Origin: Candidatus Saliniplasma sp.
GTDB taxonomy: Archaea > Thermoplasmatota > Thermoplasmata > Halarchaeoplasmatales > Halarchaeoplasmataceae
Reading direction: 5' to 3'
DNA length: 64,000 nt
Assembly: GCA_048622455.1 (NCBI GenBank)
Contig: JBMCUO010000001.1
Coordinates: 2,437-66,436, forward strand
Shown: positions 9,101 through 61,671 of the stretch, piece after piece
How positions within the stretch are numbered: position 1 is the stretch's first letter
Layout: every line of letters starts with the position of its first letter
Made by a program: the position numbers and the translations under genes
Notes under the pieces: generated by a model
The model's database searches: none
Told to the model about the DNA's origin: nothing
Seen by the model: only the letters and a program-made list of their open reading frames with translations

Positions 9101-11159
9101 CCCTCATATTTATGCCGTCATCACTTTCATAAAACACAGAATCTTCGATGATATTTTGGTCAGAACTTTCCAATCTGACCCCGTGGAAGACGTTGTTTCC
9201 AGAAGTGACATTATCTAAATGATTGCCATCTGAAAAGGCAAACTGGATACCCGTGCAGACTTCGCTTATGTTCTGGTCCTTTATGGTGATGCTGCTGGAG
9301 TTCGCCAGTATTATCTGCCCAGCCGGTGAAGTTATCTCCTGTCCTACCTCATCTCTTAGATAATACAATGGAAGGCCATTAACAGTGTTAGTTTCTTCTA
9401 TAAGATGAGTGTTCCAGTATTCTACGGAACTCCCCTCTAGATACACTCCCTGATTCTCCATGATATTATCTTCTAGTGAATTTTCTTTTGAATTCGAAAG
9501 TATTATCCCAAAACGATGGTTGTTCAAAACTGAATTATTTTTTACTGCGACCTCATCTGAGTGATGGATATCGACAGCGTTTTGATTCGATTCGAAAGTG
9601 TTGTTGATAAGGTTATTGAATGGTGACTGGGTAAGTATTATGCCTCCAGAATTTCCAGAGATGTTGTTGTCTACAAAATTGTTTTCTTCTGAATCCTGAA
9701 GTGATATACCCTCTCTATTATCCCTAAACGTACAGTTCTTGATGGTGTTAGAATCGGATTTATCAAAAGATATACCGAATCGGGAGTTACTGTTGAATAG
9801 ACTGTCAGTTATTGTATTATTTTTCGAATAGGCGAAAAATAAACCTGTGCTTCCAAGACTGACGTCGATCCCATGGATCTGAATATCCGTGGTATTCACT
9901 AATATTACCTGACCCGCCGGTTCAGTGATGTTCCCACCCACTTGGTTTTTCACATAGTGAACCGGGTCCCTGTTCACTTCATTCGATGATTCGATCTCGT
10001 GTGTGTTCCAGTGATCTAATGCACTACCTTGTATGAAGATACCACAGTTATGCATAGAGTTATCCAAAACAACATTGTAATTAGATGTATCAAGAACTAT
10101 ACCTCCTTTAGATGCGTCAGCGATAGTATTGTTGAACACTTGATTCTGTGAAGACGATGATATCTTAATACCATGCTGCCCGTTTAAGAATTCATTTGTA
10201 TCGATAATATTGCTATCAGACTCATATAATATCAAGCCTTCTGAATTATCCAGGACCTCATTTGAAAATATGTTGTTCTCTCGAGTATCATCGTCCAAAG
10301 CTATACCTATTCCGTTGTTCTCGACTCGATTAGTGGATAGATTATTATCATATCCTCCAGAAACATATATTCCCTTACCATTATCCCATATCGAATTATT
10401 TTCGATATCTATGTTCGTACTCCCTCCAACCAATGATCCTCCTTCAAAATTATCGAATATATCATTATTTTCAATAAGGTTCTGAGACGAATCCCTTATA
10501 AGGATTCCAAAACTATTTTCAGAAAATGTATTATTTACTATATTTCCGTTATTGGTATTATCGAGCACAAGACCACCCCCTGTAGATCGTGTTGCATTGA
10601 ATATATAACAATCTTCTAGAAAGAAATGATCTGTAACATTGCCCATGAATATACCGGAGTCATGTCCCCGACCGTCGACAGCTAGTCCCCCAATTATGTA
10701 AGGGTCATCCTCCGTACCATCACCTGACCATCCTTCGGACTCTACATAGTCAGCCAGCTCTGTATCGCTGTTGATAACTATCCTGGGATGATCCTCATAA
10801 TCAGCAGATATCGTAGCTGAAGTATCGGTAGAGTTAGAGGGATGTGGATTTATCGATGATTCTTTAATATCCATATCCATATCTGAGTGTTCATCCCTTG
10901 GAGAAGGTCTCATGAACTCCTCAACTGAGTTTTCATAGTACCTCCAGTATGGTTTTTCTTCACCTTCACCTTCCCCATTCATCCTTTGTAAAAGATCTCG
11001 ACTAGAAGGGTCAAATCCAGTATCCCTTTCTTCATCCGAGGACATATCTAAGTTCATTTCATCCTCGATGTCAACTCTACCATGAAATAAAGAGATAATA
11101 GACGAGTTAAATAATAAGGAGATTATAGCTATAACACAGAGAATATCGGTCTTATCCAT
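3105..11159 (-). CDS. Giant (2684 aa) multidomain cell-surface protein: signal peptide, acidic linker, parallel beta-helix block, I9 propeptide + subtilisin S8 protease, second beta-helix block, 4 Big_2-like Ig repeats, CARDB-like domain, C-terminal TM anchor
   Basis: N-terminal hydrophobic signal (ILCVIAIISLLFNSSIISLF). Hundreds of NxxGIxLxxSxxNxIxxN-type parallel beta-helix (NosD/pectin-lyase-like) repeats. Inhibitor I9-like propeptide (KTVRVFPSVGGAEIELESEDEV...AEPNHNIEL). S8 catalytic triad motifs VGVIDTGIDYNHEDL / HGHGTHVAGTIGA / GTSMATPHVSGLAALL. Repeated approx 90-aa units (TVTAGESIEFSAAAYDDYGNLVT...) like Big_2/invasin Ig domains. Sequence ends NPWWFLLLLLAIVISILNHRRYNSKRRDT (TM + basic tail). 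Confidence 0.85.
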   Translation of the reverse strand: MDKTDILCVIAIISLLFNSSIISLFHGRVDIEDEMNLDMSSDEERDTGFDPSSRDLLQRMNGEGEGEEKPYWRYYENSVEEFMRPSPRDEHSDMDMDIKESSINPHPSNSTDTSATISADYEDHPRIVINSDTELADYVESEGWSGDGTEDDPYIIGGLAVDGRGHDSGIFMGNVTDHFFLEDCYIFNATRSTGGGLVLDNTNNGNIVNNTFSENSFGILIRDSSQNLIENNDIFDNFEGGSLVGGSTNIDIENNSIWDNGKGIYVSGGYDNNLSTNRVENNGIGIALDDDTRENNIFSNEVLDNSEGLILYESDSNIIDTNEFLNGQHGIKISSSSQNQVFNNTIADASKGGIVLDTSNYNVVLDNSMHNCGIFIQGSALDHWNTHEIESSNEVNRDPVHYVKNQVGGNITEPAGQVILVNTTDIQIHGIDVSLGSTGLFFAYSKNNTITDSLFNSNSRFGISFDKSDSNTIKNCTFRDNREGISLQDSEENNFVDNNISGNSGGIILTQSPFNNLINNTFESNQNAVDIHHSDEVAVKNNSVLNNHRFGIILSNSKENSLEDNIMENQGVYLEGSSVEYWNTHLIEETNTVNGLPLYYLRDEVGQEITSPAGQIILANSSSITIKDQNISEVCTGIQFAFSDGNHLDNVTSGNNVFHGVRLESSDQNIIEDSVFYESDDGINMRDSNHNQIVNTTVFETYRGIMLWGSGKKNEIMGTTSINNMNGIRIYQNDEVLVKNNNISDNDSIGIVSSSSDRNRLEDNLLKGNGEEGISLSSSSKNVIENNTLERSGLVIRGRFLRHWNTHDIDLTNTVNGSPIYYLSNRTNQEISEDAGQVILANSTGITVHDQKLYNASVGILLGFSDYNVILNSSLEDNFYSGFEAQNSKGNLIENNTMVRNGNGIHIDRSPENRFVSNDISDSFRGAFIYNSEGSILKDNSLLHNEQSVYVFLSDHTQFINNTVSEGSENGVYIRRSHWNEVYGNSITDNAEFGLMLQSSDEYIIEKNLVQRSNDGIIIIDSKNGKITENSITNQRYGMYLGSSNFNNVSSNQVSNNRYGIRLYDSKSNKIDENYLNVDGEVENNLGRSRDESHTPDSLLVKMDIPQKDISLEQARNLLNNKADRLSNKIQGKTVRVFPSVGGAEIELESEDEVQEAIEKLSDMPEVIYAEPNHNIELASDTELTTDPNDPRYDSLWGMDKISASGAWNSTTGSEDVVVGVIDTGIDYNHEDLAANMWEDENGNHGYNAVNDSYHPLDGHGHGTHVAGTIGAVGNNSIGVTGVNWNVSLMALKIFDDSGSSTLGDAAASLEYVLEKRKEGVNIVATSNSWGWTGSESDLINDLIEKHRDNEILCIAAAGNDGTNNDLEPTYPASYDLPNIISVAATDEDDELASFSNYGENSVHVAAPGVQIYSTWRNDDYRSLSGTSMATPHVSGLAALLASHNGSYDHTNLKNIILSSTDHIENLNSVTLTEGRINASKGVGMVEDPEDPQFWLHRPTNMSEHAILTETEIIISLTDGVHPIHGADVSVKFSSGEDPLNLEDDGSGSDEPGDGYYTGIWTPSGYGEVELEITAEIDGWQATRNVTIIVFGGRTGISLINSDGNQIMDNEISWTGHSGLDIRDSRNNKIQSNNIFDNDGDGMFLQESEQNSLVDNHVAQNGGKGIYLLAADHNSLNDNSIEYNNENGVYLRKSNHTEISNGTLLGNLVGLYISWSSNNTVYNLDVTLNEAQGIYLYDGAGANELIHNEVYSNIQEGIFLRDESDENSVEHNFIKDNSQGISILESGNNTISHNIVDENDRGIDIEEATDNVVFNNTLEYNDGNGVYLYHSEFNEIVENEVSKSEEFGIELYHSSSNLVEGNYIFGNTRGVSLFGASHFNSILSNNITNNAGHGVYVSARGNTLRDNKITHSELYGIYLSRSDDNIIGSNDIEFNIDRALYAWDSEENEIRKNSFTSNEDYGIYLQDSRNNTVYHNNFIENEHQAYDDGTNRWDDGYPSGGNYWSDHDGVDEYHNESQNISGSDGVVDSIYEGDSFTDYYPLMEPVPTPHVRIDEPVEGVAISKSFVKVSWTAMYRFSDALNFSLKMNEGWEDVGTQTEHTFENLSNGEYTVEVRAFDGNGNVDTNNVTFIVDYEVDEIVISPRDTTITAGNEQQFTAKGYEGSREEIGDITFAVDWSIDEEAGGSWDDNIYLSEFQGNWSITAVHDGVENTTKLKVLPSKVHEVIIEPSKEQNISAGETLRFSAYAFDEFGNIITRTPEDFSWENTTDPGVFQKTITGDYVVTATHGGIRSKEIVVTVEPGEVGMVEIGSTGNTTVTAGESIEFSAAAYDDYGNLVTETDTDFIWRNTTENGLFEQTTAGIYEVSAIYGNVTSEMVGVKVEPSVVDTVEIDPTENITITAGEIIEFGAVAYDVYGNLITDVDSDFEWENTEEGLFEVTTVGEYLITATYEEVSSGTVVLTVEMADIHDFVVSVDDINVGDSPVIEISDVQDEYGNVLEREYPVTMKLGGDTETEVLTFSEGTSQYTWNDIDEADEYTAIVTIGEIERSYDFSVISVTTPAEFEVSNLRVDTSIIEPGNEFKLTIDVTNIGDETGEYTVNFYLDSEHIGSETVTVDGGETVTVTHIHTINEPGEYDVSVNEEKISITVRDEYSSINPWWFLLLLLAIVISILNHRRYNSKRRDT

Positions 11160-25221: not shown

Positions 25222-25917
25222 ATGAAAACCATAGGTTTGATAGGAGGTATGAGTTGGGAATCCACTCTAGAATATTATAGGATAGTGAATGAGGAAATGA
25301 AGAAAAAACTGGGAGAGGACCACTCTGGCGAACTGGCCATATATTCATTTGACTTTTATGACATCGTAAAACTCCAAGAAGAAGGAGATTGGAAAGTATT
25401 GGAAGATATGATGGTCAAAGCTGGAGAAGGACTCAAACATACTGGTGCTGACTTCCTGCTGATCTGTGCAAATACCATGAACAAGATGGCCGATAAAGTA
25501 GAACAAAGAGTTGGTTTACCTGTTATACACATCGGAGATGCCACCGCTGAAGTTATAAAAGAAAGGGGTATAGATACAGTTGGTCTGATCGGCACCAAGT
25601 ACGTTATGGAGGAGGATTTTTACAGAAGACGGTTGAAAGAAAGACATGATATCGATGTATTGATTCCTGATAAAAGTAACAGGAACAAAGTCCACGAAAT
25701 AATCTACAACGAGTTATGTAAAGGTGTAGTGAAAGAACCTTCGAAAAATAACCTTCTAGACATGATCGATGATCTGTTAGATAGAGGTGCGCAGGGTATA
25801 ATCCTTGGATGTACTGAGATACCTTTGTATATCTCTGAAGAAGAAGTTGGAAGTCCCCTATTCAATACTACTAAGATCCACGCTGAAGCCGCTGTAGATT
25901 ATGCATTAAAAGACTGA
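25222..25917 (+). CDS. Aspartate racemase (Asp/Glu/hydantoin racemase family)
   Basis: MKTIGLIGGMSWESTLEYYR N-terminus and the two conserved Cys-containing segments (LLICANTMN, ILGCTEIPL). Confidence 0.75.
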   Translation: MKTIGLIGGMSWESTLEYYRIVNEEMKKKLGEDHSGELAIYSFDFYDIVKLQEEGDWKVLEDMMVKAGEGLKHTGADFLLICANTMNKMADKVEQRVGLPVIHIGDATAEVIKERGIDTVGLIGTKYVMEEDFYRRRLKERHDIDVLIPDKSNRNKVHEIIYNELCKGVVKEPSKNNLLDMIDDLLDRGAQGIILGCTEIPLYISEEEVGSPLFNTTKIHAEAAVDYALKD

Positions 25918-26107
25918 TCGATCGAAGTGTATAACTTACGTAAGTATGCATACAAAACAGTTATATCCTAGTAAACCAAATCTAACATCCGTAAAAGATG
26001 AGGAAACATAAAGATATGCTCGATGATACCAATCTATCTACAAATATTAATCATAATTTTTTAGGAATATTAATATACCTAGTCACGATTATGCTTAGTA
26101 ATTTGAA

Positions 26108-26112
26108 GGAGG
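26108..26112 (+). promoter_or_regulatory. Shine-Dalgarno GGAGG 10 nt upstream of the cphB ATG
   Basis: gaaGGAGGtgtaaagaggATG. Confidence 0.45.
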
Positions 26113-26122
26113 TGTAAAGAGG

Positions 26123-26962
26123 ATGCCAAAAGGCCAGGTCGTCACTATAGGTGGCAATCTAGATTTCTTCCCAGAAGACCCTATAATAGTAGAATTTTTA
26201 AACAGGATCAGGGAAAATCTTGAACATTCTCCGATGATAGGTATCATCCCTTCTGCTAGTTTGAACCCTATAAGAACGGGAAAAAAATATTCTCACCTTT
26301 TCAGATGTGATGATATTCAAACCAAAGTGATATACCCAGAGGATCGTGAGGAAGCTAACAAAGAGAGTACTATAAGGGATATCGAAGACTGCGACGCTTT
26401 TTTCTTCACCGGTGGAAATCAACTTAGGATCACAGCTTTATTGGGCGGTACACAATCATTAAGAACTATCAAAGAGAAATTCGAGAACGGAGCGTTCATA
26501 GGGGGGACTAGTGCTGGGTCGGTGTGCCTTACCAGGACCATGATCGCTTACGGTAAGAGTAAAGAATCCTTACTACATGGTAAAGTTGAACTTTCTCCAG
26601 GCCTCAACATCATAGAAGATGCGGTCATAGATACACATTTCACAGCTCGAGGGAGATTCCCAAGGTTGGTACATGTTGTTACTGAACATCCCGGGATACT
26701 GGGAGTGGGATTAGGAGAGGATACAGCGGCTTTCTGGGATTTTGAAAAGAAGGAATTCTTTGTAGTAGGATCCAGGAACATAGTGGTGGTTGATGGAAAG
26801 GAGATAGGGCTATCCAGCGTTCCGCATATTAAGTACCGTGAGCCTATCTGTGTAGAGGGTATCATAGTCCATATATTGGGTAATGGCTGGGGTTTCGACC
26901 TCGAGAATAAAAAGCCTTATTTCAACGAGGATTTCAAAGTTACCCACCCAGAAGATTGGTGA
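26123..26962 (+). CDS. cphB: Cyanophycinase (peptidase S51)
   Basis: FFFTGGNQLRITALLGG and nucleophile segment FIGGTSAGSVCL match the CphB consensus (FFTGGDQLRI / GGTSAG); 279 aa. Confidence 0.8.
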   Translation: MPKGQVVTIGGNLDFFPEDPIIVEFLNRIRENLEHSPMIGIIPSASLNPIRTGKKYSHLFRCDDIQTKVIYPEDREEANKESTIRDIEDCDAFFFTGGNQLRITALLGGTQSLRTIKEKFENGAFIGGTSAGSVCLTRTMIAYGKSKESLLHGKVELSPGLNIIEDAVIDTHFTARGRFPRLVHVVTEHPGILGVGLGEDTAAFWDFEKKEFFVVGSRNIVVVDGKEIGLSSVPHIKYREPICVEGIIVHILGNGWGFDLENKKPYFNEDFKVTHPEDW

Positions 26963-26963
26963 T

Positions 26964-29612
26964 TCAGTTATTTTTCCTAAAGTTAAAAGGTCTGAGATCA
27001 GTTTTAGAACCGTTTTTAGATAATATTTTCAAGATATCCTGAGAGGTCACATCTAGGTCCGCAAATACCAATCTGTCGCCGGGCTTTCTATTTTGTAAAA
27101 CAAACTCAATTGCCTCATATTTATCAGATATCGATATAGGTACGTTACCATCGTTATCTAATACTCCCTGAGCCACCAGGTTACATGTTTCCCCATATTC
27201 CCTACCCCTGACAATCTCCTCATTTTCAGTACATATCACTATGTCGAACTTATCTGAGGCCTCTTTACCACACTGTTTTATAAATTCATCACTCCTATCC
27301 CCAGGGATGGTCAATGCGATTATCTTCCTACTGCCTGGCAGATGATCTGAATAATCACCTAATGCTTTGATTCCCTCGATATTATGCGCATAATCCAAAA
27401 CTATCAGAGAATCGTCCAATTCATAAGTATTAGCACGGCCAGGATTCATATCTTCATCCATGGAGAACACCTTCAATCTACGGATGATGTTTTTCATAGA
27501 TACACCAGAAGCATGACTTGCTGCGATTGCTGCCAACGTATTCTCCAACCACATCTTAACACCTCCCATCAGATATGGAATATCCGAGATATTCACTAGT
27601 TTCTTTCCTTCTCCCTCTTCGTATAATACTATACTAGAATCTTCCACGACTATTGTTTTGATACCTTGTTCGATAAATGAAGATATTTTATCATCTTTAT
27701 TCACAGCGAAAATAAATGGTATTCCTCTACATCTTTCAAGCAATCCATCTGCAAATTCGTCGTTCCCGTTGAAAACGCAGTATCCCTCTTTTTGAGTCGT
27801 TTCTAGAAGAAGAGATTTTACATGGAATATACCTTCTAAAGTTTCGATACCATCCATTCCCAAATGGTCCTTCTGAATATTCGTCACTACGCTAACCTTA
27901 GTTTTATCAAATCCAAGGCCACTCCTTAAGATGCCTCCCCTAGCTGTTTCGAGAACAGCGTATTCTACATCAGGATTGTCTAAAACCACTCGAGCACTCC
28001 AAGGCCCAGTGTTATCACCCTCCATTATCCTTTCACCATCAAGATATATGCCGCCTGTAACTGTCATACCAGTTTTGAAACCGACTCCTCTTGCGATCCA
28101 CTCGATGAGACGGACAGTAGTTGTCTTTCCGTTAGTTCCAGTAACTGCTATTAAAGGTATCCTACCATCTTTGTTAGGGTATAAATGATCTATCACATAT
28201 TCTCCAACATCTATGGGCTCACCTATGGCAGGGTCAGTGTGCATCCTGAGTCCAGGACTTGCGTTCACCTCTATTATACCCCATCTCATATCATCTGGGT
28301 GTTTGGTAACGTCTTCAGCGATGATATCTATCCCGACCATATCCATATCAATTACTTTACTAGCCCTCTCGATGATTTTTATCAATTCTGGATTTACACG
28401 ACCTGTATAATTCTCTGAGATCGCTCCTGTACTTAGGTTACCACCCACCCTAAGATAGACTTTTTCTCCTTTGTCGGGTACTGATTCAGGTATGAAACCT
28501 CGAGTTCTCAAGTATCTTTTCTCCTCCTTACCCAATCTGATAATGGTAAGAACGCCTTGATGCCCTTCACTTCTACGGGGATCCTCGTTTTCCTTTTCGA
28601 CCAGTTCCTCGATGGTAGATTCACCATCTCCAGTCACATGAGGGGGGATCCTCTTTGAAACGGCTTTTACTTCATCATCTATAACTAAAAACCTGAAATC
28701 ATCACCTGGGATATGCTCCTCTAAAAGTAATTTATCCGAGTATTGTTTCGAGATATCGTAGGCTTCCTCCAATTCGTCTTCATCGATTATATCCCCTATA
28801 ACACCCTTCCCTTGATGACCATCTACTGGTTTTATTATGACCGGATATCTGAGTGTTTTAGCGGCTTGGATAGCCTCTTCTTTGGAAGTCACCGTTTCAC
28901 CTTCTGGCACTGAAAAACCTGTTTCATGTAGGACCTTTTTAGTCAATAATTTGTCTTGTGCGATATCAGAGGATATCATGGATGTTTTGGAAGTCACCGG
29001 TCCCCAGATCCTCCTTTTTTTTACACCCCAACCCAAGGAGTAAAGGCTGTAGTCCTTATGAATATGTCGGAATGGGATATCATGTCGTTTGGCAGCATCT
29101 AAAATAGCTTTTGTACTCGGTCCCTTCTTACTCAGCATGTATACCTTACGGGCCTTTTTTATGATGCTGTTGACTTTACCTTTAAGACCCTCTTCTCCTT
29201 TTAGTATCAAATTGTATATTTCTACCGCCTTATCGAGAGCATGATCCACGAGTTCTTCATAATTGTATTCTATGATTAAGTTATAAACATTACCAGAGTC
29301 TTTACGACTTTTACCAAAAAATATTTCGTCTCCTGCCATATTTTGGATTGCTATAGCGATGTGTTCGATAACGTGTGTTGGATATGTTCCCTCATCGAGT
29401 CTCTCTAAAAATCCACCTTTGTAACCTGGAGAACAAGTATGATTTTTAATCTCCGGAAAGAAATTTACCAAGAGTTCTTTTATACGCTCATCAGACGGAA
29501 CATCTGTCATATCTCCTAGATCTAAGGTTACATCTAATACGGGAAAAAGAGCATGGATATTTGGCCCTTTAAGATAATTCTTCTTTATGATCCGTATCTC
29601 TTCATTGGACAT
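26964..29612 (-). CDS. cphA: Cyanophycin synthetase
   Basis: 882 aa. Central ATP-grasp domain. C-terminal Mur-ligase module with IPLIAVTGTNGKTTTVRLI P-loop and VLETARGGILRSGLGFD...NIQKDHLG. This architecture is diagnostic for CphA. Confidence 0.85.
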   Translation of the reverse strand: MSNEEIRIIKKNYLKGPNIHALFPVLDVTLDLGDMTDVPSDERIKELLVNFFPEIKNHTCSPGYKGGFLERLDEGTYPTHVIEHIAIAIQNMAGDEIFFGKSRKDSGNVYNLIIEYNYEELVDHALDKAVEIYNLILKGEEGLKGKVNSIIKKARKVYMLSKKGPSTKAILDAAKRHDIPFRHIHKDYSLYSLGWGVKKRRIWGPVTSKTSMISSDIAQDKLLTKKVLHETGFSVPEGETVTSKEEAIQAAKTLRYPVIIKPVDGHQGKGVIGDIIDEDELEEAYDISKQYSDKLLLEEHIPGDDFRFLVIDDEVKAVSKRIPPHVTGDGESTIEELVEKENEDPRRSEGHQGVLTIIRLGKEEKRYLRTRGFIPESVPDKGEKVYLRVGGNLSTGAISENYTGRVNPELIKIIERASKVIDMDMVGIDIIAEDVTKHPDDMRWGIIEVNASPGLRMHTDPAIGEPIDVGEYVIDHLYPNKDGRIPLIAVTGTNGKTTTVRLIEWIARGVGFKTGMTVTGGIYLDGERIMEGDNTGPWSARVVLDNPDVEYAVLETARGGILRSGLGFDKTKVSVVTNIQKDHLGMDGIETLEGIFHVKSLLLETTQKEGYCVFNGNDEFADGLLERCRGIPFIFAVNKDDKISSFIEQGIKTIVVEDSSIVLYEEGEGKKLVNISDIPYLMGGVKMWLENTLAAIAASHASGVSMKNIIRRLKVFSMDEDMNPGRANTYELDDSLIVLDYAHNIEGIKALGDYSDHLPGSRKIIALTIPGDRSDEFIKQCGKEASDKFDIVICTENEEIVRGREYGETCNLVAQGVLDNDGNVPISISDKYEAIEFVLQNRKPGDRLVFADLDVTSQDILKILSKNGSKTDLRPFNFRKNN

Positions 29613-30020: not shown

Positions 30021-30476
30021 ATGAAGAAGCTAGTGGTTTATATCTTGATCATCCTCCTGGTGGCGGTAGCTTTCGTGGGCTGTAATACCGAAACACCAAG
30101 ACCACCTGCTTACGATATACCTAAATTTGTCATGGATTATCCAGCCCAGGAAGAAGGACCAAATGAAACTGCCATTTTTATCCACGGTGTTGAGGATGTT
30201 ATTTACGATAGACTGATTTTACAAGTCGATAATGAAACCATTTTTAACAAAACCCGAGCTTTTTCTATCGAATATAAAACCAACCGCACTGATTTTCATA
30301 TCAATACTTATGTGTACAGAGACGAAGATATATACAATTTTAACGCTACCATTGAAACTTTCCATAATGAAGAGGTTGCATATCGTTTTAGATTAACACA
30401 TATTGATGGGAGCGAAGAAAATATAAAGCCTGAAAATCTACCCTTCGTAAGGAGAATGAACATCATGGAGGATTAA
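30021..30476 (+). CDS. Predicted secreted/lipoprotein (signal peptide with VGC lipobox-like site)
   Basis: MKKLVVYILIILLVAVAFVGCNTE. Confidence 0.4.
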   Translation: MKKLVVYILIILLVAVAFVGCNTETPRPPAYDIPKFVMDYPAQEEGPNETAIFIHGVEDVIYDRLILQVDNETIFNKTRAFSIEYKTNRTDFHINTYVYRDEDIYNFNATIETFHNEEVAYRFRLTHIDGSEENIKPENLPFVRRMNIMED

Positions 30477-30479
30477 ACT

Positions 30480-30788
30480 ATGAGAAAAATACCCGTATCA
30501 TTGATACTTCTAGGTTCTCTAATTGTTGGAGTGGGGCTAGTAGCGGTAGCCACGATGACAGGAGTTCTACCCATGAGAAACATATTAACAGGTTTCTATA
30601 CCTTTGTCTTCGGATTGGTCGTTATCTCCATATTGGCTATAATCGGTGCGGTGTTTTTCGGGATGTACATATCCCATAGGATATTCTCTACCCGCCAATT
30701 CACTACTTTTGAAGAAGAGATGCTCAAGATGAAAGATGATGTACAGGAGATCAAGAAAAAATTGGAAGAAAAAGACAAGAAAAACTAA
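30480..30788 (+). CDS. Small membrane protein (2 TM) with charged C-terminal helix
   Basis: Hydrophobic segments; 3-nt gap to the preceding gene. Confidence 0.35.
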   Translation: MRKIPVSLILLGSLIVGVGLVAVATMTGVLPMRNILTGFYTFVFGLVVISILAIIGAVFFGMYISHRIFSTRQFTTFEEEMLKMKDDVQEIKKKLEEKDKKN

Positions 30789-31777
30789 ACCAAAGATTCC
30801 GGACATATCTCCCGTCGGGAACAATTTCTGCATTTTCCTTTTCTATTATGGTTCCTGTGAACGTCCTCTGTTTGAAATATCTCCCTCATCTCTTCGAGCT
30901 TTTCTATTAACAGATCTTTCAACGAGTCGTCATATTCAACCTCGAACTCTTTTTCACCATACTTAACGATACCATATGGTGGTGCCTTACCAGTATCTTC
31001 TTCCATCAGTAAACAGTAAGCAGCGACCTGAAGTATATGTGAGAAAAAGGGTCCTTTGGGAACTCGGCCTGTTTTAATCTCCACTGGGATCCTTGTTTCG
31101 TTCTCCTTTACAACATAATCTGGTCTACCTCTTAATCGGTATTTATCAGAGGCGAACATCTTACTACTTTCTTCGTATAGATCAACGTAATCTACCTCTG
31201 CATCGGGCATGTGTAACTTTTCTTTTTTAGTTTTAACTTCTCTACCCAATGAAAGTGACCTTTTAAGCCAGTAGCTGGCCCCTATCAACCAGATCAAAGA
31301 GATAACTTGAGTTATCCTAGCTAGATAATCGTCCAATATAGGGAGTGTTATACTCATTATCCCTAAACCGGTAGCAACCATGGCAAAAACAAGTATCACA
31401 CGTTCAGACTTGAATTCATCCTCCTTGATAACACCCTTCTCACTCATAAAGAGTAAAAAAGTAGCCGCTAAAAGCCATATCAAAGCGTTCACTTGGAATA
31501 TCTGACTGAATATTTTTTCTGGTCTGATCAAAGTCAATCCAGCTATAGATAGAAAAGTTGCTGAAACAGCTAACCACAAGATGAGGTTTTCAATCCTCTT
31601 TGTAGCCTCCTCTTTTTCTTTGACCTCATCTATCTCTCCAGTTATTTTTTTATGTTCTTCCCTGCCCTCTTTTAGACTTTCGTTTATAACTTCCTTCTCA
31701 GACTCGTTCAACCACCAACTAAGAGGACAGTATCCATATTTTTCAACATCACTGGCCGATATCCAAGGTTCTCCCAT
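30785..31777 (-). CDS. Cas4-like PD-(D/E)XK nuclease with Fe-S cysteine tetrad and an inserted 4-helix membrane domain
   Basis: N-terminal ISASDVEKYGYCPLSWWL (first Cys). Core RGRPDYV...VEIKTG (D...ExK). QVAAYCLLMEE (QxxxY). C-terminal CRNCSRREICPE (CxxCx5C). Residues approx 65-180 form four hydrophobic helices. Confidence 0.6.
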   Translation of the reverse strand: MGEPWISASDVEKYGYCPLSWWLNESEKEVINESLKEGREEHKKITGEIDEVKEKEEATKRIENLILWLAVSATFLSIAGLTLIRPEKIFSQIFQVNALIWLLAATFLLFMSEKGVIKEDEFKSERVILVFAMVATGLGIMSITLPILDDYLARITQVISLIWLIGASYWLKRSLSLGREVKTKKEKLHMPDAEVDYVDLYEESSKMFASDKYRLRGRPDYVVKENETRIPVEIKTGRVPKGPFFSHILQVAAYCLLMEEDTGKAPPYGIVKYGEKEFEVEYDDSLKDLLIEKLEEMREIFQTEDVHRNHNRKGKCRNCSRREICPESLV

Positions 31778-31823: not shown

Positions 31824-32807
31824 TTAGAACATTTTTTGTATGTTTGAAGGTGAAAATACTCCTTTTTCGGTGATAAAACCAGTTATGTATTTTGATGGAG
31901 TAACGTCGAAGGCGGGGTTGCGTGCTGTTGAACCTTTTGGAATGATCTTGTTATCGTTTATATGGGAAACCTCTTCTTGATTTCTTTCCTCTATAGGTAT
32001 ATACCTTCCGTGTTGGATATCTTTATCGAAGGTGGTAACAGGAGCTGCAACATAGAATGGTATATCGTTCTCTTTAGCTACAACCGCTTTCTCATAGGTA
32101 CCTATCTTATTGGCGATATCTCCGTTAGCGACTATCCTATCTGTTCCTACGATAACCATATCGATATCACCTCTCTGCATGTAATGTCCGGCTGCATTGT
32201 CTACGATGACCGCATGTGAAATATCTTCGTTGTACAATTCCCATGCTGTGAGTCTAGCTCCCTGTAACCTTGGCCGGGTTTCATCAGCGTAAACAAAGAT
32301 ATCTTTTTCCTTAGCTGCTCTTATGGGCGCCAAAGCGGTACCGTAATCCACCGTAGCTAGGGCACCAGCGTTGCAGTGTGTTAGTATATTGTCTCCCCGG
32401 TTGATCAGCTCATTTCCATGCTGTCCTATAGACCTACATTTATCTACAACCGAGTCGACATATTTTTCTGCAGTTTTTATAGGGTCGTTCCCTGGATGTT
32501 TTAACATATAATCCACAGCGTAGAACAGGTCATAAGCCGTAGGTCTCGCTGACTTGATGATTTCAGCCGCTGATTCGGTTTGACCTTTTTCCAAAGCCTG
32601 CGCCATCCCGTAGGCCGCCGTAGCTCCTATCGCAGGTGCGCCGCGAACCATCATCTCCTTGATGGACCTTTTTATATCTTTGTGATCCTCAGCTTCGAAA
32701 TACCTCAACTCATGGGGCAGATATCTCTGATCTATCATCTTGACTAAGTTTCCATCCATCCAAACAGCCCTCATATCTTCGATCCCATCTTTTGTTTTAA
32801 CTTTCAT
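31824..32807 (-). CDS. mtnA: S-methyl-5-thioribose-1-phosphate isomerase (MtnA) / eIF-2B-family sugar-phosphate isomerase
   Basis: AVWMDGNLVKMIDQRYLP N-terminus and MMVRGAPAIGATAAYG motif. Confidence 0.7.
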   Translation of the reverse strand: MKVKTKDGIEDMRAVWMDGNLVKMIDQRYLPHELRYFEAEDHKDIKRSIKEMMVRGAPAIGATAAYGMAQALEKGQTESAAEIIKSARPTAYDLFYAVDYMLKHPGNDPIKTAEKYVDSVVDKCRSIGQHGNELINRGDNILTHCNAGALATVDYGTALAPIRAAKEKDIFVYADETRPRLQGARLTAWELYNEDISHAVIVDNAAGHYMQRGDIDMVIVGTDRIVANGDIANKIGTYEKAVVAKENDIPFYVAAPVTTFDKDIQHGRYIPIEERNQEEVSHINDNKIIPKGSTARNPAFDVTPSKYITGFITEKGVFSPSNIQKMF

Positions 32808-33559
32808 ATCTTCACCTCTTCGTAGGCTTCTAAAAGTTTAGGAACAGTTTTCATGTCTTGGAGTTCTTTTTCTTTTACCCATCTATACTCTATATTCTCC
32901 CAGTTAAGAACGGGATCGTTTTTAGTTTTGAATAGATAAGGGTGTACTTCCCATATCTTGTTCTCTCCTCTGGCAAGAACAACGTCCCCCTTTCTTATAA
33001 ATTCCACATCCATCCTGGTCTCCTCTCTGATCTCATTGACAGCCTGTTCTAACGGGTCTTTACTTTCCAGATATCCCGAGATCCCTGACCACCTTCCCTG
33101 AAAACTGCCTACCTGGTCTCCTCTCTTAACGACTAAAATTTTTCCTTCCCTAACGATGAAACTGGTCACCACGGGAGTGGATGTGATGTCGGGAAGTTCT
33201 AATTCCCCTGTTTTTCCGTTCAAGATGACCCTATCTTCGTTTTTTAGTAGTCCGATATCTATCTTGTCTATTAAAGGTATATCCGAGATGATAGCACCCG
33301 CCGCTACGATAGTTTCGGTCTCCTCATTCACTATAGCTCTAGGTGCACATCCATTCTTTTTTAGCTGATATATAACGTATGAACCAACCGTACTTCCTTT
33401 TCCCCTTGGAAATACGAATATAGAATCTGAGATATTGAATTTTTGAAATACAGTGCCAGAATCTGGATCCACGTCGCCCAGGAAAGACACCGGTTCTCGA
33501 ACTTTTACCACGTTTCCTTCTGCAGTTCCAGGTGACACTCCCCTTCCTTTCATGATCAA
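32804..33559 (-). CDS. Fusion protein: AcnX small (swivel, DUF126) subunit of phosphomevalonate dehydratase + C-terminal NUDIX hydrolase domain
   Basis: Residues 1-130 GRGVSPGTAEGNVVKV...FVFPRGKGSTVGSYVIYQL...GCAPRAIV match the AcnX small subunit. Residues approx 140-251 contain a Nudix box GYLESKDPLEQAVNEIREETRMD. Overlaps the upstream large subunit gene by 4 nt. Confidence 0.6.
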   Translation of the reverse strand: MIMKGRGVSPGTAEGNVVKVREPVSFLGDVDPDSGTVFQKFNISDSIFVFPRGKGSTVGSYVIYQLKKNGCAPRAIVNEETETIVAAGAIISDIPLIDKIDIGLLKNEDRVILNGKTGELELPDITSTPVVTSFIVREGKILVVKRGDQVGSFQGRWSGISGYLESKDPLEQAVNEIREETRMDVEFIRKGDVVLARGENKIWEVHPYLFKTKNDPVLNWENIEYRWVKEKELQDMKTVPKLLEAYEEVKI

Positions 33560-34713
33560 GATATCATCTCCATCAGCGTATCTAAATCGGCGTATATGAC
33601 TTTCTGATGAGCGAGTTTAGGTAGGTAAGCAGCGGCTTTACCCGAGTTGGTGGCAGCGGTACCGTACCGGTTCTCTAAGGGGCTGACCACCATGCAGGTA
33701 TCAGTGATGACTTTACCTCCTTTATCCTGTATGACCTCGACTGCTCTTGGATTATCTTCTTTTACCCTCCTGCTGGTGTATATGAATAATTCTGGCCTAT
33801 GTTTTATACATTTATTCTTTAGTAACGTTGCGATGTGGTTCAATTCTTTTGAAGAGAGATGAGGACATCCTAAAACTATAACGTCTGGATCGTTCTCTTC
33901 GGTAAGCTGTAGTCTTATCTCTTCTATGTCTTCTTTTGTAACAGTGAAGGTTTCTAGATCTCCGACTGCGAAATCATCATATTCGGGAGTGATACCTTCT
34001 ACGTGATAAAGTGCCACCGCCCCGGTAGCAGCCATTGCGGCACCTAGTGATTTAAGTTCGTCCTCATCAGGTGAAATACCTCTAAAATACGGGATTTCAT
34101 TGCCAACCTCGTTTCCTACCAGGTATCCCAGTAAAGCAGCAGGTACGTCATCCCCTATATCATAAACCACATCCGGTGACCTGTTCTCTTTGATGTGTAG
34201 ACCATAGTAAGGCGTTTTACCGATGACAGCTGCCATGAGTGCTGATGGACCGCCTTCTCTGTTGGTCCGGGCACCCAGTACCGAGTTGGCAAAAGATACA
34301 GCTGAACTTTCACTCCAGGCCAGATGTGTATCCTTTCCTGGTCTGTTTCCCGCAAGGTACGGTGTACACGTACATGACGGTTCAATACCCATACTCCTAT
34401 AGGCCTCGATCAACTTCAGCTGCTGTTTTCTGAAGTTCTTACTTTCAATACCCTTCTCATCCAGATCCATTCCAGCGGGGTTCATCAGTGTTCGAACTTT
34501 AACTTCTGCGATATTAGAAAAATCTTCTACAAATTCTAACCCTGCATCTCCCATCGTTTTGTAAGAAACCCCTGCAACCTGTGCAGACTCGATAGGTATG
34601 AGCTTTTCAGCGTCGTATATCTTACCTATCGCTACGAGTAACTTCATCGCTTTTTCAGGCCCAGGTCCTTGTTCACCTTCTAAGATACCTTCTTCTTCCT
34701 TTGTCAGATACAA
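33556..34713 (-). CDS. AcnX-type large subunit (DUF521), predicted phosphomevalonate dehydratase large subunit of the archaeal mevalonate pathway
   Basis: MYLTKEEEGILEGEQGPGPEKAMKLLVAIGKIYDAEKLIPIESAQVAGVSYKTMGDAGLEF N-terminus typical of AcnX catalytic subunits; 385 aa. Confidence 0.7.
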   Translation of the reverse strand: MYLTKEEEGILEGEQGPGPEKAMKLLVAIGKIYDAEKLIPIESAQVAGVSYKTMGDAGLEFVEDFSNIAEVKVRTLMNPAGMDLDEKGIESKNFRKQQLKLIEAYRSMGIEPSCTCTPYLAGNRPGKDTHLAWSESSAVSFANSVLGARTNREGGPSALMAAVIGKTPYYGLHIKENRSPDVVYDIGDDVPAALLGYLVGNEVGNEIPYFRGISPDEDELKSLGAAMAATGAVALYHVEGITPEYDDFAVGDLETFTVTKEDIEEIRLQLTEENDPDVIVLGCPHLSSKELNHIATLLKNKCIKHRPELFIYTSRRVKEDNPRAVEVIQDKGGKVITDTCMVVSPLENRYGTAATNSGKAAAYLPKLAHQKVIYADLDTLMEMIS

Positions 34714-37420: not shown

Positions 37421-37972
37421 TCATTTATATTCCTGACATGTAGGACAGTACCATCGGTTGTATTCGTAATTCATCTTAGTTCCACAGTCCGGACAGAATC
37501 TTTCCTCCTGTTTTGTAGATCGTACTCCCTGTATCGAAGATTGTTTTGAGTAAGAAGGTGGTGGTACGTCATTCCCCTTTCCTTCAAATTCTTCTTTTGA
37601 CATGTATATCAGCACCAGAGCTATCAAAGAAATTAAACTTGCAAGAAATAATGGACCAAACGAAAATATTCCTGCTATCGATGCACCTAAAGCAAACCTC
37701 CAATGGATTCGCTTTATGGCTAAGATCCCACCAATCAACAAAACTATACCCAAGATCAAAAAGACCGCACCACAAACGTTCATGATAGTTTGTATAATAG
37801 ATTCGAGTCCCTGGACTTCCCCATCTTGGATCTCATCTTCTATATTCAATGTGTTTATATCCAATAGTAAAATCTGGGCAGCACTTGCTATAGCCAGTAT
37901 ACAAGCGATAATCATCAATATCCCAGCGACCAAAGGTTTTTTGCTTTCATCTCTTTGATGATAAGTCCTCAA
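37421..37972 (-). CDS. Membrane protein (4 TM) with C-terminal zinc ribbon
   Basis: CPDCGTKMNYEYNRWYCPTC at the C-terminus after hydrophobic helices. Confidence 0.45.
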   Translation of the reverse strand: MRTYHQRDESKKPLVAGILMIIACILAIASAAQILLLDINTLNIEDEIQDGEVQGLESIIQTIMNVCGAVFLILGIVLLIGGILAIKRIHWRFALGASIAGIFSFGPLFLASLISLIALVLIYMSKEEFEGKGNDVPPPSYSKQSSIQGVRSTKQEERFCPDCGTKMNYEYNRWYCPTCQEYK

Positions 37973-38043
37973 GTCTATCTCCTCTTACCGCTAACTTTTA
38001 TGTATTCTATACATATATAATTTTCGTAAAAATCAATAGAAGA

Positions 38044-38116
38044 TGCCGCAGGCCGGACTTGAACCGGCGACATTCGCATCTTCAGTGCGACACTCTCCCA
38101 ACTGAGTTACTGCGGC
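38044..38116 (-). tRNA. tRNA-Phe (anticodon GAA)
   Basis: Reverse complement GCCGCAGTAACTCAGTTGGGAGAGTGTCGCACTGAAGATGCGAATGTCGCCGGTTCAAGTCCGGCCTGCGGCA folds into a full cloverleaf. Anticodon loop CTGAAGA. Confidence 0.85.
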
Positions 38117-38162
38117 TCAGTTGAGGACATATACTCATCAGATTTTAATCTTACGCTTGAAT

Positions 38163-38429
38163 TTAACGAATAATTTCAGTAAAATGATCTCCTAGGCCTA
38201 TAGAGGAAAGAAGGTCTCTCAGCGATAGCACCTGTATTTCACTGCACAGTTCTCTGATATGATCCTCTTTCATACCAGCTTTTTCGAGTTCTCTTCTGAG
38301 ATACTTCTCTTTTCTTTTTACTTTTCTTTTATATTTTAAGTAAACTAACAACAGTTTTAGAAACAGGGGGAGGATTAGAGCTATTACACGTATGACCTTG
38401 ACCGGTGCTCTATCCTCCTTTTCCTTCAT
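38163..38429 (-). CDS. Hypothetical small protein with one TM helix and basic stretch
   Basis: ORF; abuts the next gene. Confidence 0.3.
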   Translation of the reverse strand: MKEKEDRAPVKVIRVIALILPLFLKLLLVYLKYKRKVKRKEKYLRRELEKAGMKEDHIRELCSEIQVLSLRDLLSSIGLGDHFTEIIR

Positions 38430-38807
38430 CTAATCCCAATCCTCTTCATCCATCTTCTTTTTCATCTTCTCTTCTATCTTCTTCTTGATATCTTCCCCGA
38501 AATCCTCGTTCATCTCCCCGCCGCTCATTAAACCAGAGCTTCCAAGAGCTTCTCTCACGAGGCTCGTTACGTCTCTACCTTTCATGAAATCCCTTGTTAG
38601 CTGATAAGCTTGGTCCTTCTCCATACCTGCATCGACAAGTTCTTTGTAGAAATTGGCCGTGTTCTTGGCTAACTCCTTGCTGTTCTCAGCATTGTAGACC
38701 GCTTCAACTATCCCTGATATCAAGGAGGGGACCGTTTCATTCAGGGTTTCCATCACGCCTTTCAACTCTTTTATATCTTCCATATCATCTATATCCATCT
38801 TTAACAC
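38430..38807 (-). CDS. Hypothetical acidic helical protein
   Basis: ORF, K/E/D-rich C-terminus. Confidence 0.3.
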   Translation of the reverse strand: MLKMDIDDMEDIKELKGVMETLNETVPSLISGIVEAVYNAENSKELAKNTANFYKELVDAGMEKDQAYQLTRDFMKGRDVTSLVREALGSSGLMSGGEMNEDFGEDIKKKIEEKMKKKMDEEDWD

Positions 38808-38831
38808 CTATATACTATAAGGGTGACCAAA

Positions 38832-39284
38832 CTATTTCTTGATACCGAGCAATTCTGCCCACTTTTCGATGATCTTATCGGTAAGGGTGTAATTTTTCCC
38901 CGTACCACTTTCTACCCTTTTCACTACATTTTTTTCTTCGAGTTTTTTGAGCCTGTCTCTGACTGTGTGTCTGGAAGCGGATCCCTTCTTGTGTCTCATC
39001 CTCTCTGTAATCTGAGTGATATTAGCGCTTTTGGTGTCGAGAAGTATCTCGACTATATTCTCGGAAATCGGGTCTTTGATATCGGGCAGTACTGATGGAG
39101 ATATCTTACCATATCGCTTATAAAGGGAGAGCATATTGAGGTATCTTTTTTCGATATCTGAATCCATGGAGACTTTTTGTAAAACATTCTTGTGCATATC
39201 CATCAGATTCTTAAGCATACCTTGCATGGTATCTACCTGTTTTTTGAGTGACTCGATTTCCTTTTTTAATTCCTCTTCTCCCAT
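38832..39284 (-). CDS. Coiled-coil protein with C-terminal winged-helix DNA-binding domain
   Basis: Heptad-rich N-half; C-terminal ITERMRHKKGSASRHTVRDRLKKLEEKNVVKRVESGTGKNYTLT wHTH-like. Confidence 0.4.
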   Translation of the reverse strand: MGEEELKKEIESLKKQVDTMQGMLKNLMDMHKNVLQKVSMDSDIEKRYLNMLSLYKRYGKISPSVLPDIKDPISENIVEILLDTKSANITQITERMRHKKGSASRHTVRDRLKKLEEKNVVKRVESGTGKNYTLTDKIIEKWAELLGIKK

Positions 39285-58757: not shown

Positions 58758-59887
58758 CAAACTCCCATGGCCAAGCGGAGCATGTTCCTAAATCCAGGAG
58801 CTAGACCCAGTACGATTATAACAAATTTAACGAGTACGGTCACACTTCTCATATCTTTCAATTCTTCCCTGAGCCCAACATCTAACACGTATATGGACCC
58901 GACTATTATGAGAAGTTTCATGAGATACATGACCAAGGAAGTTCCGATCAGATCTATCAGGAGGGTGGGTACTACATGTTTTTCCACATAACCGTAATAT
59001 TCGATACCTCTGTAGGTAGAGGAAGCGTCGAAGAAGTGAGCAAACGCTATCAATAAGTTCAAAATCGAGAGATATCCTTTCGAAATCCTATCAGAACGCT
59101 GAAGTAGATATAATGTGGTTACAAAAAGTGAGGTGGCCAAGAAGGCGTAACCCAGTATGATAGGGACTTCCCACGGGTTTGAATTCTGCAAAGTCAGTAT
59201 ATAATGAGTACAATATATCAGAGCTACAGCTAAGAACGAACCTCCGTAGGCTGAGAATAGGTACTTCTCGTTCTGCCATCTGTACTTGATCCCAACGAAG
59301 TAAAATACCACCAGAACTGCGAACATGACCACTGAAAGTACAGTATAGAACTTCAAACGCAGGAGTAAAAATATCAGCAGAGGCGGGACCAAGACGAAGG
59401 CTCTACTCGTATGTCCCAACTCATTCAACCAACTCCCAAGAACCATGGTCAGTATCGCGGATATACCCAGCACGAAATAGATGATAGGTGAAATAAATAA
59501 AGGTGCGATGCTCTCTCTGAACAATCCAGCATCTTCAAGTGCTCTGAGAGAACCTCCGAGCAGAAGCCATGGTAACAGGGATAGCACGAAATTCTTATTC
59601 ACTTCGATATCATAATGATCGATGATCTCGTAGATCCCTAACAGCGAAAGTGCTACAACGAGACCGTATGCAAGTGTATTCACCCAGTTGTATCCCTCAG
59701 AAATGCCGTTCACCGGTTCATCTCGTGCATCCGCCAGAACGGGACCCCATAAATATCTGAACAAGAATGAGTCCCAGAACAGCTCTGGTAAGACCAGCGA
59801 ACCAAAAATTAAGATCACCGTGGGAACTGTTAAAATTAAAATCCAGGACTTCAGTTTATTATCTAGATATATTTCGCTCAAGTTCAT
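58757..59887 (-). CDS. Polytopic membrane protein (DUF63-like), last gene of the glmU-glmS operon
   Basis: 376 aa, 9-10 TM; start overlaps the glmS stop by 4 nt. Confidence 0.45.
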   Translation of the reverse strand: MNLSEIYLDNKLKSWILILTVPTVILIFGSLVLPELFWDSFLFRYLWGPVLADARDEPVNGISEGYNWVNTLAYGLVVALSLLGIYEIIDHYDIEVNKNFVLSLLPWLLLGGSLRALEDAGLFRESIAPLFISPIIYFVLGISAILTMVLGSWLNELGHTSRAFVLVPPLLIFLLLRLKFYTVLSVVMFAVLVVFYFVGIKYRWQNEKYLFSAYGGSFLAVALIYCTHYILTLQNSNPWEVPIILGYAFLATSLFVTTLYLLQRSDRISKGYLSILNLLIAFAHFFDASSTYRGIEYYGYVEKHVVPTLLIDLIGTSLVMYLMKLLIIVGSIYVLDVGLREELKDMRSVTVLVKFVIIVLGLAPGFRNMLRLAMGV

Positions 59888-61668: not shown

Positions 61669-61671
61669 TGT

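Follow-up and report, generated by a model that had tools for sequence, protein, structure and literature searches.

A predicted membrane-anchored solo-Cas4 nuclease with a duplicated transmembrane hairpin inside its fold in Candidatus Saliniplasma and related archaea

We analysed a 64-kb stretch of DNA (hereafter the window) from a Candidatus Saliniplasma genome (contig JBMCUO010000001.1, positions 2,437 to 66,436). Its minus strand carries a gene for a Cas4-like nuclease with a predicted internal membrane domain, which we call Cas4-TM (TM, transmembrane). The gene and its parts lie as follows (positions of the window):

30785-31777, minus strand: Cas4-TM gene (predicted membrane-anchored solo-Cas4), an open reading frame (ORF) of 330 amino acids (aa) with an ATG start, stop codon included
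31595-31777, minus strand: N-terminal part of the Cas4 fold, residues 1-61, with the first iron-sulphur (Fe-S) cysteine C17 (YGYCPLSWW) and motif I (G38, H42)
31439-31594, minus strand: transmembrane hairpin 1 (TM1, TM2), residues 62-113, predicted from hydrophobicity, AlphaFold2 helices and homology to hairpin 2
31262-31405, minus strand: transmembrane hairpin 2 (TM3, TM4), residues 125-172, predicted from hydrophobicity, AlphaFold2 helices and homology to hairpin 1
30788-31210, minus strand: RecB-like nuclease core, residues 190-330, with D220, E233, K235, Q250 and Y254, HRNH at 307-310, and C316/C319/C325

Cas4-TM is 100% identical to a protein of one Candidatus Saliniplasma metagenome-assembled genome (MAG; Halarchaeoplasmatales, Thermoplasmata). 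An earlier note, made from the letters of the window, had credited the protein with the full set of Cas4/DUF83 signatures, and this was borne out by matches to Pfam and to TIGR00372 and by the presence of every quoted motif in the translation: YGYCPLSWW (C17), RGRPDYV (D220), VEIKTG (E233, K235), QVAAYCLLMEE (Q250, Y254) and the C-terminal Cys triad CRNCSRREICPE (C316, C319, C325). The protein has five cysteines (17, 255, 316, 319 and 325). The NCBIfam model TIGR00372 (cas4) scored 97.2 bits (curated cut-off 65), its match being limited to residues 155-326 because of the insert. PF01930 (Cas_Cas4/DUF83) scored 49.1 bits (cut-off 22.7, E 8.8e-13) and PDDEXK_1 (PF12705) reached an E value of 1.3e-14, both Pfam matches being confined to residues 176-326. 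Among the PADLOC models, only those of Cas4/DruK-type PD-(D/E)XK nucleases matched. Alignment of the family profile with SSO0001 (4ic1) paired RGRPD with KGRAD (D99) and VEvKtG with IEIKTS (E113, K115), which places D220/E233/K235 in register with D99/E113/K115; the QxxxY and Cys residues were likewise in register. The alignment with the type I-C Cas4 8d3l takes in the N-terminal CPlsWW...eGekkH, and residues 1-61 align with the 8d3l N-terminus (FQFCKRQWAL...EGQHLH). Since the profile aligns to solved Cas4 structures including this N-terminal segment, the Cas4 fold is complete. Profile score, catalytic motifs (including the motif I histidine and QxxxY), four cysteines and fold all place the protein in the Cas4 family; judged by its sequence, Cas4-TM is a complete stand-alone Cas4-like PD-(D/E)XK nuclease, with a predicted activity and a predicted four-cysteine Fe-S site. 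Public records label the family 'CRISPR-associated protein Cas4' or 'PD-(D/E)XK nuclease family protein'.

The insert (approximately residues 62-172) adds some 115-130 residues and separates Cas4 motif I (H42) from motif II (D220). Kyte-Doolittle analysis delimited hydrophobic segments at residues 62-85, 89-112 and 125-149; a fourth, at approximately 155-172, was read from the sequence and is helical in the AlphaFold2 model. The four segments have 16-22 residues each. The earlier note had also described four helices and had set them between the first cysteine and the nuclease core. The helix count stands; the insertion point has to be moved to the boundary between motifs I and II, because the motif I histidine (H42 of EGREEH) precedes the insert. 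Profile-profile alignment (hhalign) of residues 52-118 with residues 115-181 gave a probability of 99.3% and an E value of 6.9e-21, with 34% identity over 61 columns, indicating that the insert consists of two tandem copies of one transmembrane hairpin of approximately 60 residues. The hairpin pattern is E-x-x-I-L-x-F-A-x-x-A-T ... (A/S)-L-I-W-L-x-(A/G)-A-(S/T)-x-F-L. The insert gave no meaningful family match in Pfam, NCBIfam or PADLOC, and the TM helices of Cas4-TM showed no polar residues of the kind that line a channel. Taking the architecture alone, we are highly confident that a complete Cas4 nuclease here contains a duplicated internal transmembrane hairpin.

Charges flanking the helices were counted in 35 homologs. 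On the nuclease side, the mean number of Lys and Arg residues was 3.8 before TM1, 3.1 in the TM2-TM3 loop and 5.3 after TM4 (approximately 12 in total), compared to 0.8 in each of the two short loops on the opposite side (approximately 1.6 in total). Fe-S domains are assembled in the cytoplasm. The positive-inside rule and this cytoplasmic assembly both place the nuclease on the cytoplasmic side. Charge distribution, Fe-S requirement and structural model together suggest that both nuclease halves are cytoplasmic (N-in/C-in) and held close beneath the membrane. The protein has the membrane-spanning helices, the even helix number and the positive-inside bias of an integral membrane protein, the bias being taken from charge counts.

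An AlphaFold2 model was built from the 35-sequence alignment (mean predicted local distance difference test score, pLDDT, 75; predicted template modelling score 0.69). The pLDDT was 77-96 across most of the nuclease core. Helices were modelled at residues 33-83, 88-113, 123-144 and 150-187; the motif I helix continues unbroken into TM1, and TM4 continues into the helix that returns to the first core strand. In this model, the long continuous helices (33-83 into TM1, and TM4 into 150-187) would leave a few nanometres between the active site and the lipid surface. Foldseek searches of the PDB with the nuclease part retrieved the type I-C Cas4 8d3l (E 1.4e-5), the Cas4-Cas1 structure 7mi5 and Pcal_0546 (4r5q), followed by Dna2, ACE1 and MGME1. 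Whether the nuclease fold stays intact around the insertion had been raised together with the original observation: the core is modelled confidently and resembles Cas4, while confidence falls in the Cys-triad tail, as expected since the metal cluster is absent from the model.

When 1.84 billion cluster representatives were searched exhaustively, 1286 relatives emerged at E ≤1e-3 and 81 at E ≤1e-30. Besides ordinary Cas4 (approximately 175 aa), three size classes with TM helices were found among them: a 2-TM class of approximately 265-285 aa (one hairpin), a 4-TM class of approximately 325-345 aa (two hairpins), which is the commonest, and an 8-TM class of approximately 500-645 aa (four hairpins) from Thermoplasmata and Methanomassiliicoccales. 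In phmmer searches, the query matched most of the 8-TM proteins in 3-5 separate stretches, indicating repeated hairpins. The helix number was even (2, 4 or 8) in all apparently full-length relatives, as expected if both nuclease halves must share one side of the membrane. Identity within clades was 47-51% in the TM region, about the same as in the N-terminal nuclease segment, and six TM-region residues were invariant (W101, L103, F131, W163, L164 and A167). Being conserved like the nuclease segment and having invariant residues of its own, the insert is more than a generic anchor.

A protein database search gave 1579 matches. The 120 best were 315-349 aa long, nearly all with at least 98% query coverage and down to 44% identity; their named sources were all Thermoplasmatota or 'Methanobacteriota' MAGs. 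A scan of one genome per species detected relatives in at least 370 species genomes, the best 80 being Thermoplasmata or Methanomassiliicoccales MAGs except for one labelled Aenigmatarchaeota and one labelled 'archaeon'. A contig labelled Candidatus Aenigmatarchaeota (L015, JBKHKA010000001.1) shares its gene order with the Halarchaeoplasmatales loci (clusters 12, 11, 9, 4, 3, Cas4-TM, 2, 1) and has a Cas4-TM 57% identical to the window copy; it may have been mislabelled or wrongly binned. The cultured methanogen Methermicoccus shengliensis has a 2-TM form (WP_052353351.1, 266 aa), which shows that the membrane-inserted design is not strictly limited to a single phylum.

The residues C17, G38, H42, D220, E233, K235, Q250, Y254, C316, C319 and C325 and the HRNH at 307-310 were invariant in the 35 homologs (43-88% identity), and across 79 genomic copies their conservation remained 95% or higher. 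The earlier note had named two findings that would overturn it, namely loss of the catalytic D/E/K and Cys residues and a mis-assembled or frameshifted fusion of two genes. The first is contradicted by this conservation. The second is contradicted by the more than 100 protein clusters in which conservation extends from end to end, and by the spread over the species genomes above. We also considered whether a membrane gene and a Cas4 gene had been fused by error, and rejected it: the same continuous ORF is present in assemblies made independently of each other (NCBI, JGI, ENA and Logan) at 43-100% identity.

Across loci, the identity of Cas4-TM to the window copy tracked that of the neighbouring enzymes (Pearson 0.83-0.91), which fits vertical descent, as reported for solo-Cas4 genes generally (PMC5704561). 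No relative was found in a scan of IMG/VR viral contigs or in a tblastn search of phage records, and a viral or mobile origin was discarded on these two empty searches. Judged by these comparisons, Cas4-TM appears to be vertically inherited, like a housekeeping gene rather than a defence-island gene. As in solo-Cas4 genes, it lies outside CRISPR-cas and mobile contexts and its inheritance is mainly vertical within an archaeal lineage.

Two genes on the opposite strand converge on Cas4-TM and form a two-gene unit:

30021-30476, plus strand: first gene of the unit, encoding a predicted lipoprotein of 151 aa (signal peptide, ...FVGC lipobox, beta-sandwich)
30480-30788, plus strand: second gene, convergent with Cas4-TM, encoding a 102-aa protein (the 2-TM protein) that has two TM helices and, at its C-terminus, a charged helix

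The ends of Cas4-TM and the 2-TM protein gene overlap by 4 nucleotides (30785-30788), where CTAA provides TAA on the plus strand and TAG on the minus strand. Since the gene ends overlap, the 3' ends of the transcripts must also overlap. Of 83 loci, 54 have a convergent gene for a 2-TM protein of approximately 100 aa as the next gene downstream of Cas4-TM, and in no locus does it occur at another place; the 4-nucleotide overlap recurs in most of these 54. The gene for a lipoprotein of approximately 150 aa comes next in all but one of them, and again never elsewhere. This three-gene unit stays together while the genes on both outer flanks vary. It recurs in distant 8-TM loci, where the 2-TM protein and the lipoprotein are 41% and 23% identical to those of the window. 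Cas4-TM and the 2-TM protein have diverged at equal rates (mean identity 56% for both), and the lipoprotein much faster (36%). Neither partner gave anything meaningful in Pfam, NCBIfam or PADLOC. The sequence search returned only 9 close homologs of the lipoprotein; its AlphaFold2 model is all-beta with low confidence (pLDDT 61), and the model matched only generic Ig/FnIII sandwiches among known structures (E approximately 0.01 or weaker).

The co-directional genes upstream of Cas4-TM vary by clade and are often arranged as in an operon. In 13 loci the product of the upstream gene is an LTDx2-PLDc_2x2-PKD protein that has a signal peptide and is anchored by a TM segment at its C-terminus (gaps of -38 to +24 nucleotides). 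In 10 loci the upstream gene encodes a TPD-domain protein (PF14811, a CDIN1/C15orf41-like PD-(D/E)XK nuclease) at gaps of -35 to +62 nucleotides, the gap being 3 nucleotides in five of the 10. A large protein is encoded upstream in all four 8-TM loci examined, and three of the four are clearly related; Pfam domains determined in one locus (L081) are HhH, Zn-ribbon and TPR at the N-terminus and lamin-tail domains (LTDs) at the C-terminus. The related proteins (L081:3646-7989, L087:727-7023 and L088:1669-7068; 1447-2098 aa) share a TM helix in mid-protein and a hydrophobic C-terminal anchor preceded by IPEF, and each of their genes abuts or overlaps the start of the 8-TM Cas4 gene. Downstream of the 2-TM Cas4 gene of Methermicoccus shengliensis, its strand carries genes for a 127-aa protein of unknown function, XPB helicase and Bax1 (DUF790), in this order; PolD-DP1 (small subunit) is encoded further along the locus, making this region (L084:4144-8657, DUIH01000011.1) a DNA-repair/replication neighbourhood.

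In the window, Cas4-TM is preceded by genes for an IF-2B-family enzyme (eIF2B-like / ribose-1,5-bisphosphate isomerase family), an AcnX swivel-NUDIX fusion and AcnX, and cyanophycin synthetase is encoded downstream. The neighbours described in the earlier note (a lipoprotein, a small membrane protein and an unknown 82-aa protein) correspond to the 151-aa lipobox protein, the 102-aa 2-TM protein and an 82-aa protein without a family match. Scanning every window ORF of 80 aa or longer against Pfam brought up genes of metabolism, transport and housekeeping, and neither a cas nor a defence-system domain. No CRISPR-like array was detected in the 64-kb window by TRF, direct-repeat search or k-mer array scan, and a k-mer scan of 88 homologous loci likewise found none up to 10 kb away. 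The stated absence of a CRISPR array and cas genes nearby is therefore upheld by the repeat and Pfam scans of the window, and the adjacent cas1/cas2 genes and array that mark a CRISPR-associated Cas4 were found neither in the window nor at the 88 loci.

Several other features of the window were recorded. The cyanophycin synthetase, an 882-aa protein with Cyanophycin_syn, ATP-grasp and Mur ligase domains, is encoded beside Peptidase_S51 (cyanophycinase family) and Asp/Glu racemase genes (25222-29612); together they would form a cyanophycin storage/turnover cluster in a Thermoplasmatota archaeon. The gene at 32804-33559 (minus strand) fuses the AcnX swivel small subunit to a NUDIX hydrolase and lies directly downstream of the AcnX large subunit gene (33556-34713); the fusion is conserved in related loci (cluster 4). 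GlmS-like and GlmU-like (nucleotidyltransferase plus hexapeptide) genes are present at 59884-62853 (minus strand), approximately 28 kb from Cas4-TM; in another clade (L041, L050, L053, L067 and others), a GlmS-like gene is directly downstream of Cas4-TM, in most cases with a GlmU-like gene too. Two genes probably encode surface proteins: one of 2684 aa with 12 NosD/beta-helix stretches and a subtilase S8 domain (3105-11159, minus strand), and a GLUG-motif protein of 668 aa (63-2069, plus strand) whose gene has eight copies of an 81-nucleotide repeat (528-1757). At the edge of the window, positions 63239-63616 hold 3.2 tandem copies of a 120-nucleotide repeat with 75% matches. Four small ORFs without a Pfam match (183, 88, 125 and 150 aa; 37421-39284, minus strand) lie between MatE transporter and TrmB/ArsR-type regulator genes.

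We propose that Cas4-TM is a membrane-tethered solo-Cas4 that cuts or resects DNA at the inner face of the membrane, probably with envelope partners; taken as a whole, this statement seems to us about evenly poised between right and wrong. The enzyme would act most likely on free DNA ends, and its candidate substrates are incoming DNA (virus, conjugation or uptake) or membrane-attached chromosomal DNA. Tethering may keep a potentially toxic nuclease off the bulk chromosome; overexpression of the M. mazei solo-Cas4 slows growth (PMC12501428). Cas4-TM probably cooperates with the conserved 2-TM protein and lipoprotein encoded tail-to-tail with it, and in other lineages probably with envelope proteins bearing HhH DNA-binding, LTD and PLD-type hydrolase domains. 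We infer the action on DNA ends and the roles of the partners from knowledge of the family and from gene context. The earlier note had suggested action on DNA at the envelope, possibly in defence. The envelope part of that idea gains contextual support from the 2-TM protein and lipoprotein and from the LTD-PLD, HhH-LTD and TPD neighbours; defence is not favoured, because the gene behaves as a vertically inherited housekeeping gene and not as a defence-island gene.

A number of points weigh against this proposal. The activity, Fe-S binding and topology of Cas4-TM are all predictions. The model reaches no more than moderate pLDDT values in its membrane part (53-73) and its Cys-triad tail (53-57). 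The convergent pair is missing from 29 of the 83 loci, and the TM regions are no less conserved there, conservation being equal with and without the 2-TM partner. The 4-nucleotide overlap alone could fix the gene order without a functional link. In the window, nucleic-acid-related partners are absent, since the co-directional upstream gene, 46 nucleotides away, encodes the eIF2B-like metabolic enzyme. Finally, PLD-family enzymes can act on lipids rather than on DNA.

A rather improbable alternative, which nevertheless deserves serious attention, is that Cas4-TM is a housekeeping nuclease of DNA repair or chromosome maintenance, which the anchor merely localises or limits, with no role on incoming DNA and no real partnership with envelope proteins. 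The vertical-looking inheritance, the divergence similar to that of neighbouring enzymes, the housekeeping neighbourhood and the absence from the viral collections searched all agree with it, as does the finding that solo-Cas4 genes generally evolve as ordinary cellular genes (PMC5704561). The Methermicoccus variant lies beside XPB-Bax1 and PolD, one clade has a TPD nuclease as operon partner, and the partner-less clade has an equally conserved TM region. Left unexplained are the three different envelope-exposed neighbours in separate clades (LTD-PLD, HhH-LTD, and lipoprotein plus 2-TM protein) and, if the hairpins were a mere anchor, their invariant residues and variable copy number. We consider it unlikely that Cas4-TM is an antiviral effector whose envelope partners sense infection or membrane perturbation and free or activate the nuclease against the invader or against host DNA (abortive infection). 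The Cas4 family is linked to defence, DruK-like PD-(D/E)XK models match in PADLOC, the partners are membrane-bound or extracellular, and membrane-embedded defence complexes such as Kiwa provide a precedent (PMC11785009). However, no known defence genes are nearby, PADLOC matched Cas4-TM itself (Cas4/DruK) and none of its neighbours, the gene is stably and vertically inherited in a housekeeping gene order rather than in variable islands, solo-Cas4 genes show no arms-race signature (PMC5704561), and the family was not found on viral or mobile contigs.

There is little to recommend the reading of Cas4-TM as a true CRISPR adaptation Cas4 acting in trans with Cas1-Cas2 and an array elsewhere in the genome, and we regard it as very unlikely. 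Its score exceeds the TIGR00372 'equivalog' cut-off and its public name is 'CRISPR-associated protein Cas4', but the window has no array or cas gene, and no array lies near the 88 members scanned. Moreover, CRISPR-linked cas4 moves horizontally with the adaptation module (PMC5704561), whereas the Cas4-TM lineage is vertical, and a membrane tether would be hard to reconcile with a soluble Cas4-Cas1-Cas2 complex. An artefact, whether an error of sequencing or assembly that joined two genes or a degenerate pseudogene, is hardly credible: it is suggested by the unusual architecture alone, while the N-terminal Cys/His segment that precedes the insert completes the fold and all catalytic residues are conserved.

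Soluble Cas4 proteins such as SSO0001 and the M. mazei Solo-Cas4 form decameric rings. Cas4-TM may likewise oligomerise, its hairpins and the 2-TM partner building a membrane assembly with the lipoprotein (LTD-PLD or HhH-LTD proteins elsewhere) outside; DNA would move through the membrane or along it and be resected by the nuclease ring as it passes. This is a speculative extension that we think quite unlikely. If true, it would be a new archaeal import/export-coupled nuclease machine, functionally comparable to ComEC uptake, and the first cellular role for a solo-Cas4.

The architecture would surprise a specialist, whatever becomes of the function, which is inferred. A solo-Cas4 built into the membrane offers a concrete localisation clue (DNA at the cytoplasmic membrane) to the role of solo-Cas4, in a lineage of hundreds of species with conserved envelope-protein neighbours. 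In terms of protein evolution, a tandemly amplifiable hairpin (1, 2 or 4 copies) is accommodated within a soluble catalytic fold with no catalytic residue lost. The annotation 'CRISPR-associated protein Cas4' is misleading for any count of cas genes across Thermoplasmatota genomes.

The searchable full-text literature, with paywalled papers and arCOG notes outside its scope, yielded no account of a Cas4 integrated in the membrane. The word 'transmembrane' is absent from the 2017 Cas4 survey (PMC5704561), and a survey of the PD-(D/E)XK superfamily mentions transmembrane elements just generically. The JCVI-syn3.0 Cas4-DEDD fusion, Kiwa and a survey of CRISPR-linked genes were considered as prior descriptions and set aside, their content being unrelated. 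Kiwa (KwaA/KwaB; PMC11785009) resembles Cas4-TM in coupling a multi-helix membrane component to a DNA-acting cytoplasmic component; it differs in the lack of homology, in that the Cas4-TM partners have no PADLOC match, and in that Cas4-TM has no defence-island context.

Among other known systems, the uptake nucleases ComEC (a channel with a metallo-beta-lactamase nuclease), B. subtilis NucA and S. pneumoniae EndA are fixed at the membrane and process DNA that crosses the envelope. Prokaryotic LTD domains accompany envelope hydrolases of this kind, and an LTD gene is upstream of Cas4-TM in two clades. The resemblance is one of concept: these nucleases have unrelated folds and act outside the membrane, whereas Cas4-TM is predicted to face the cytoplasm. 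The Fe-S 'staple' nucleases AddB, RecB-like proteins, Dna2 and MGME1 belong to the same fold class, and by analogy action on DNA ends is likely; unlike them, Cas4-TM has no helicase partner domain, is far smaller and is predicted to be integrated in the membrane. The CRISPR Cas4 proteins SSO0001 (4ic1), Pcal_0546 (4r5q) and type I-C (8d3l) are its best structure and sequence matches, and their N-terminal Cys/His and CX2CX5C align with those of Cas4-TM. In contrast to them, Cas4-TM has a membrane domain between motifs I and II and is without nearby cas1, cas2 or array. Its closest known counterparts are the archaeal solo-Cas4 proteins (COG1468/PF01930), whose phylogenomics was described by Hudaiberdiev et al. 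2017 (PMC5704561) and of which the M. mazei enzyme was characterised by Rentz et al. 2025 (PMC12501428). Cas4-TM shares with them the Cas4 core, the four Fe-S cysteines, the QxxxY motif, the location away from CRISPR-cas and the vertical inheritance within an archaeal lineage. The M. mazei solo-Cas4 is reported to have no RecB motif (PMC12501428), whereas this motif is intact in Cas4-TM. Finally, the known solo-Cas4 proteins are soluble, approximately 170-270 aa long and in some cases decameric, while Cas4-TM and its relatives have 2, 4 or 8 predicted TM helices inside the fold and conserved envelope neighbours.

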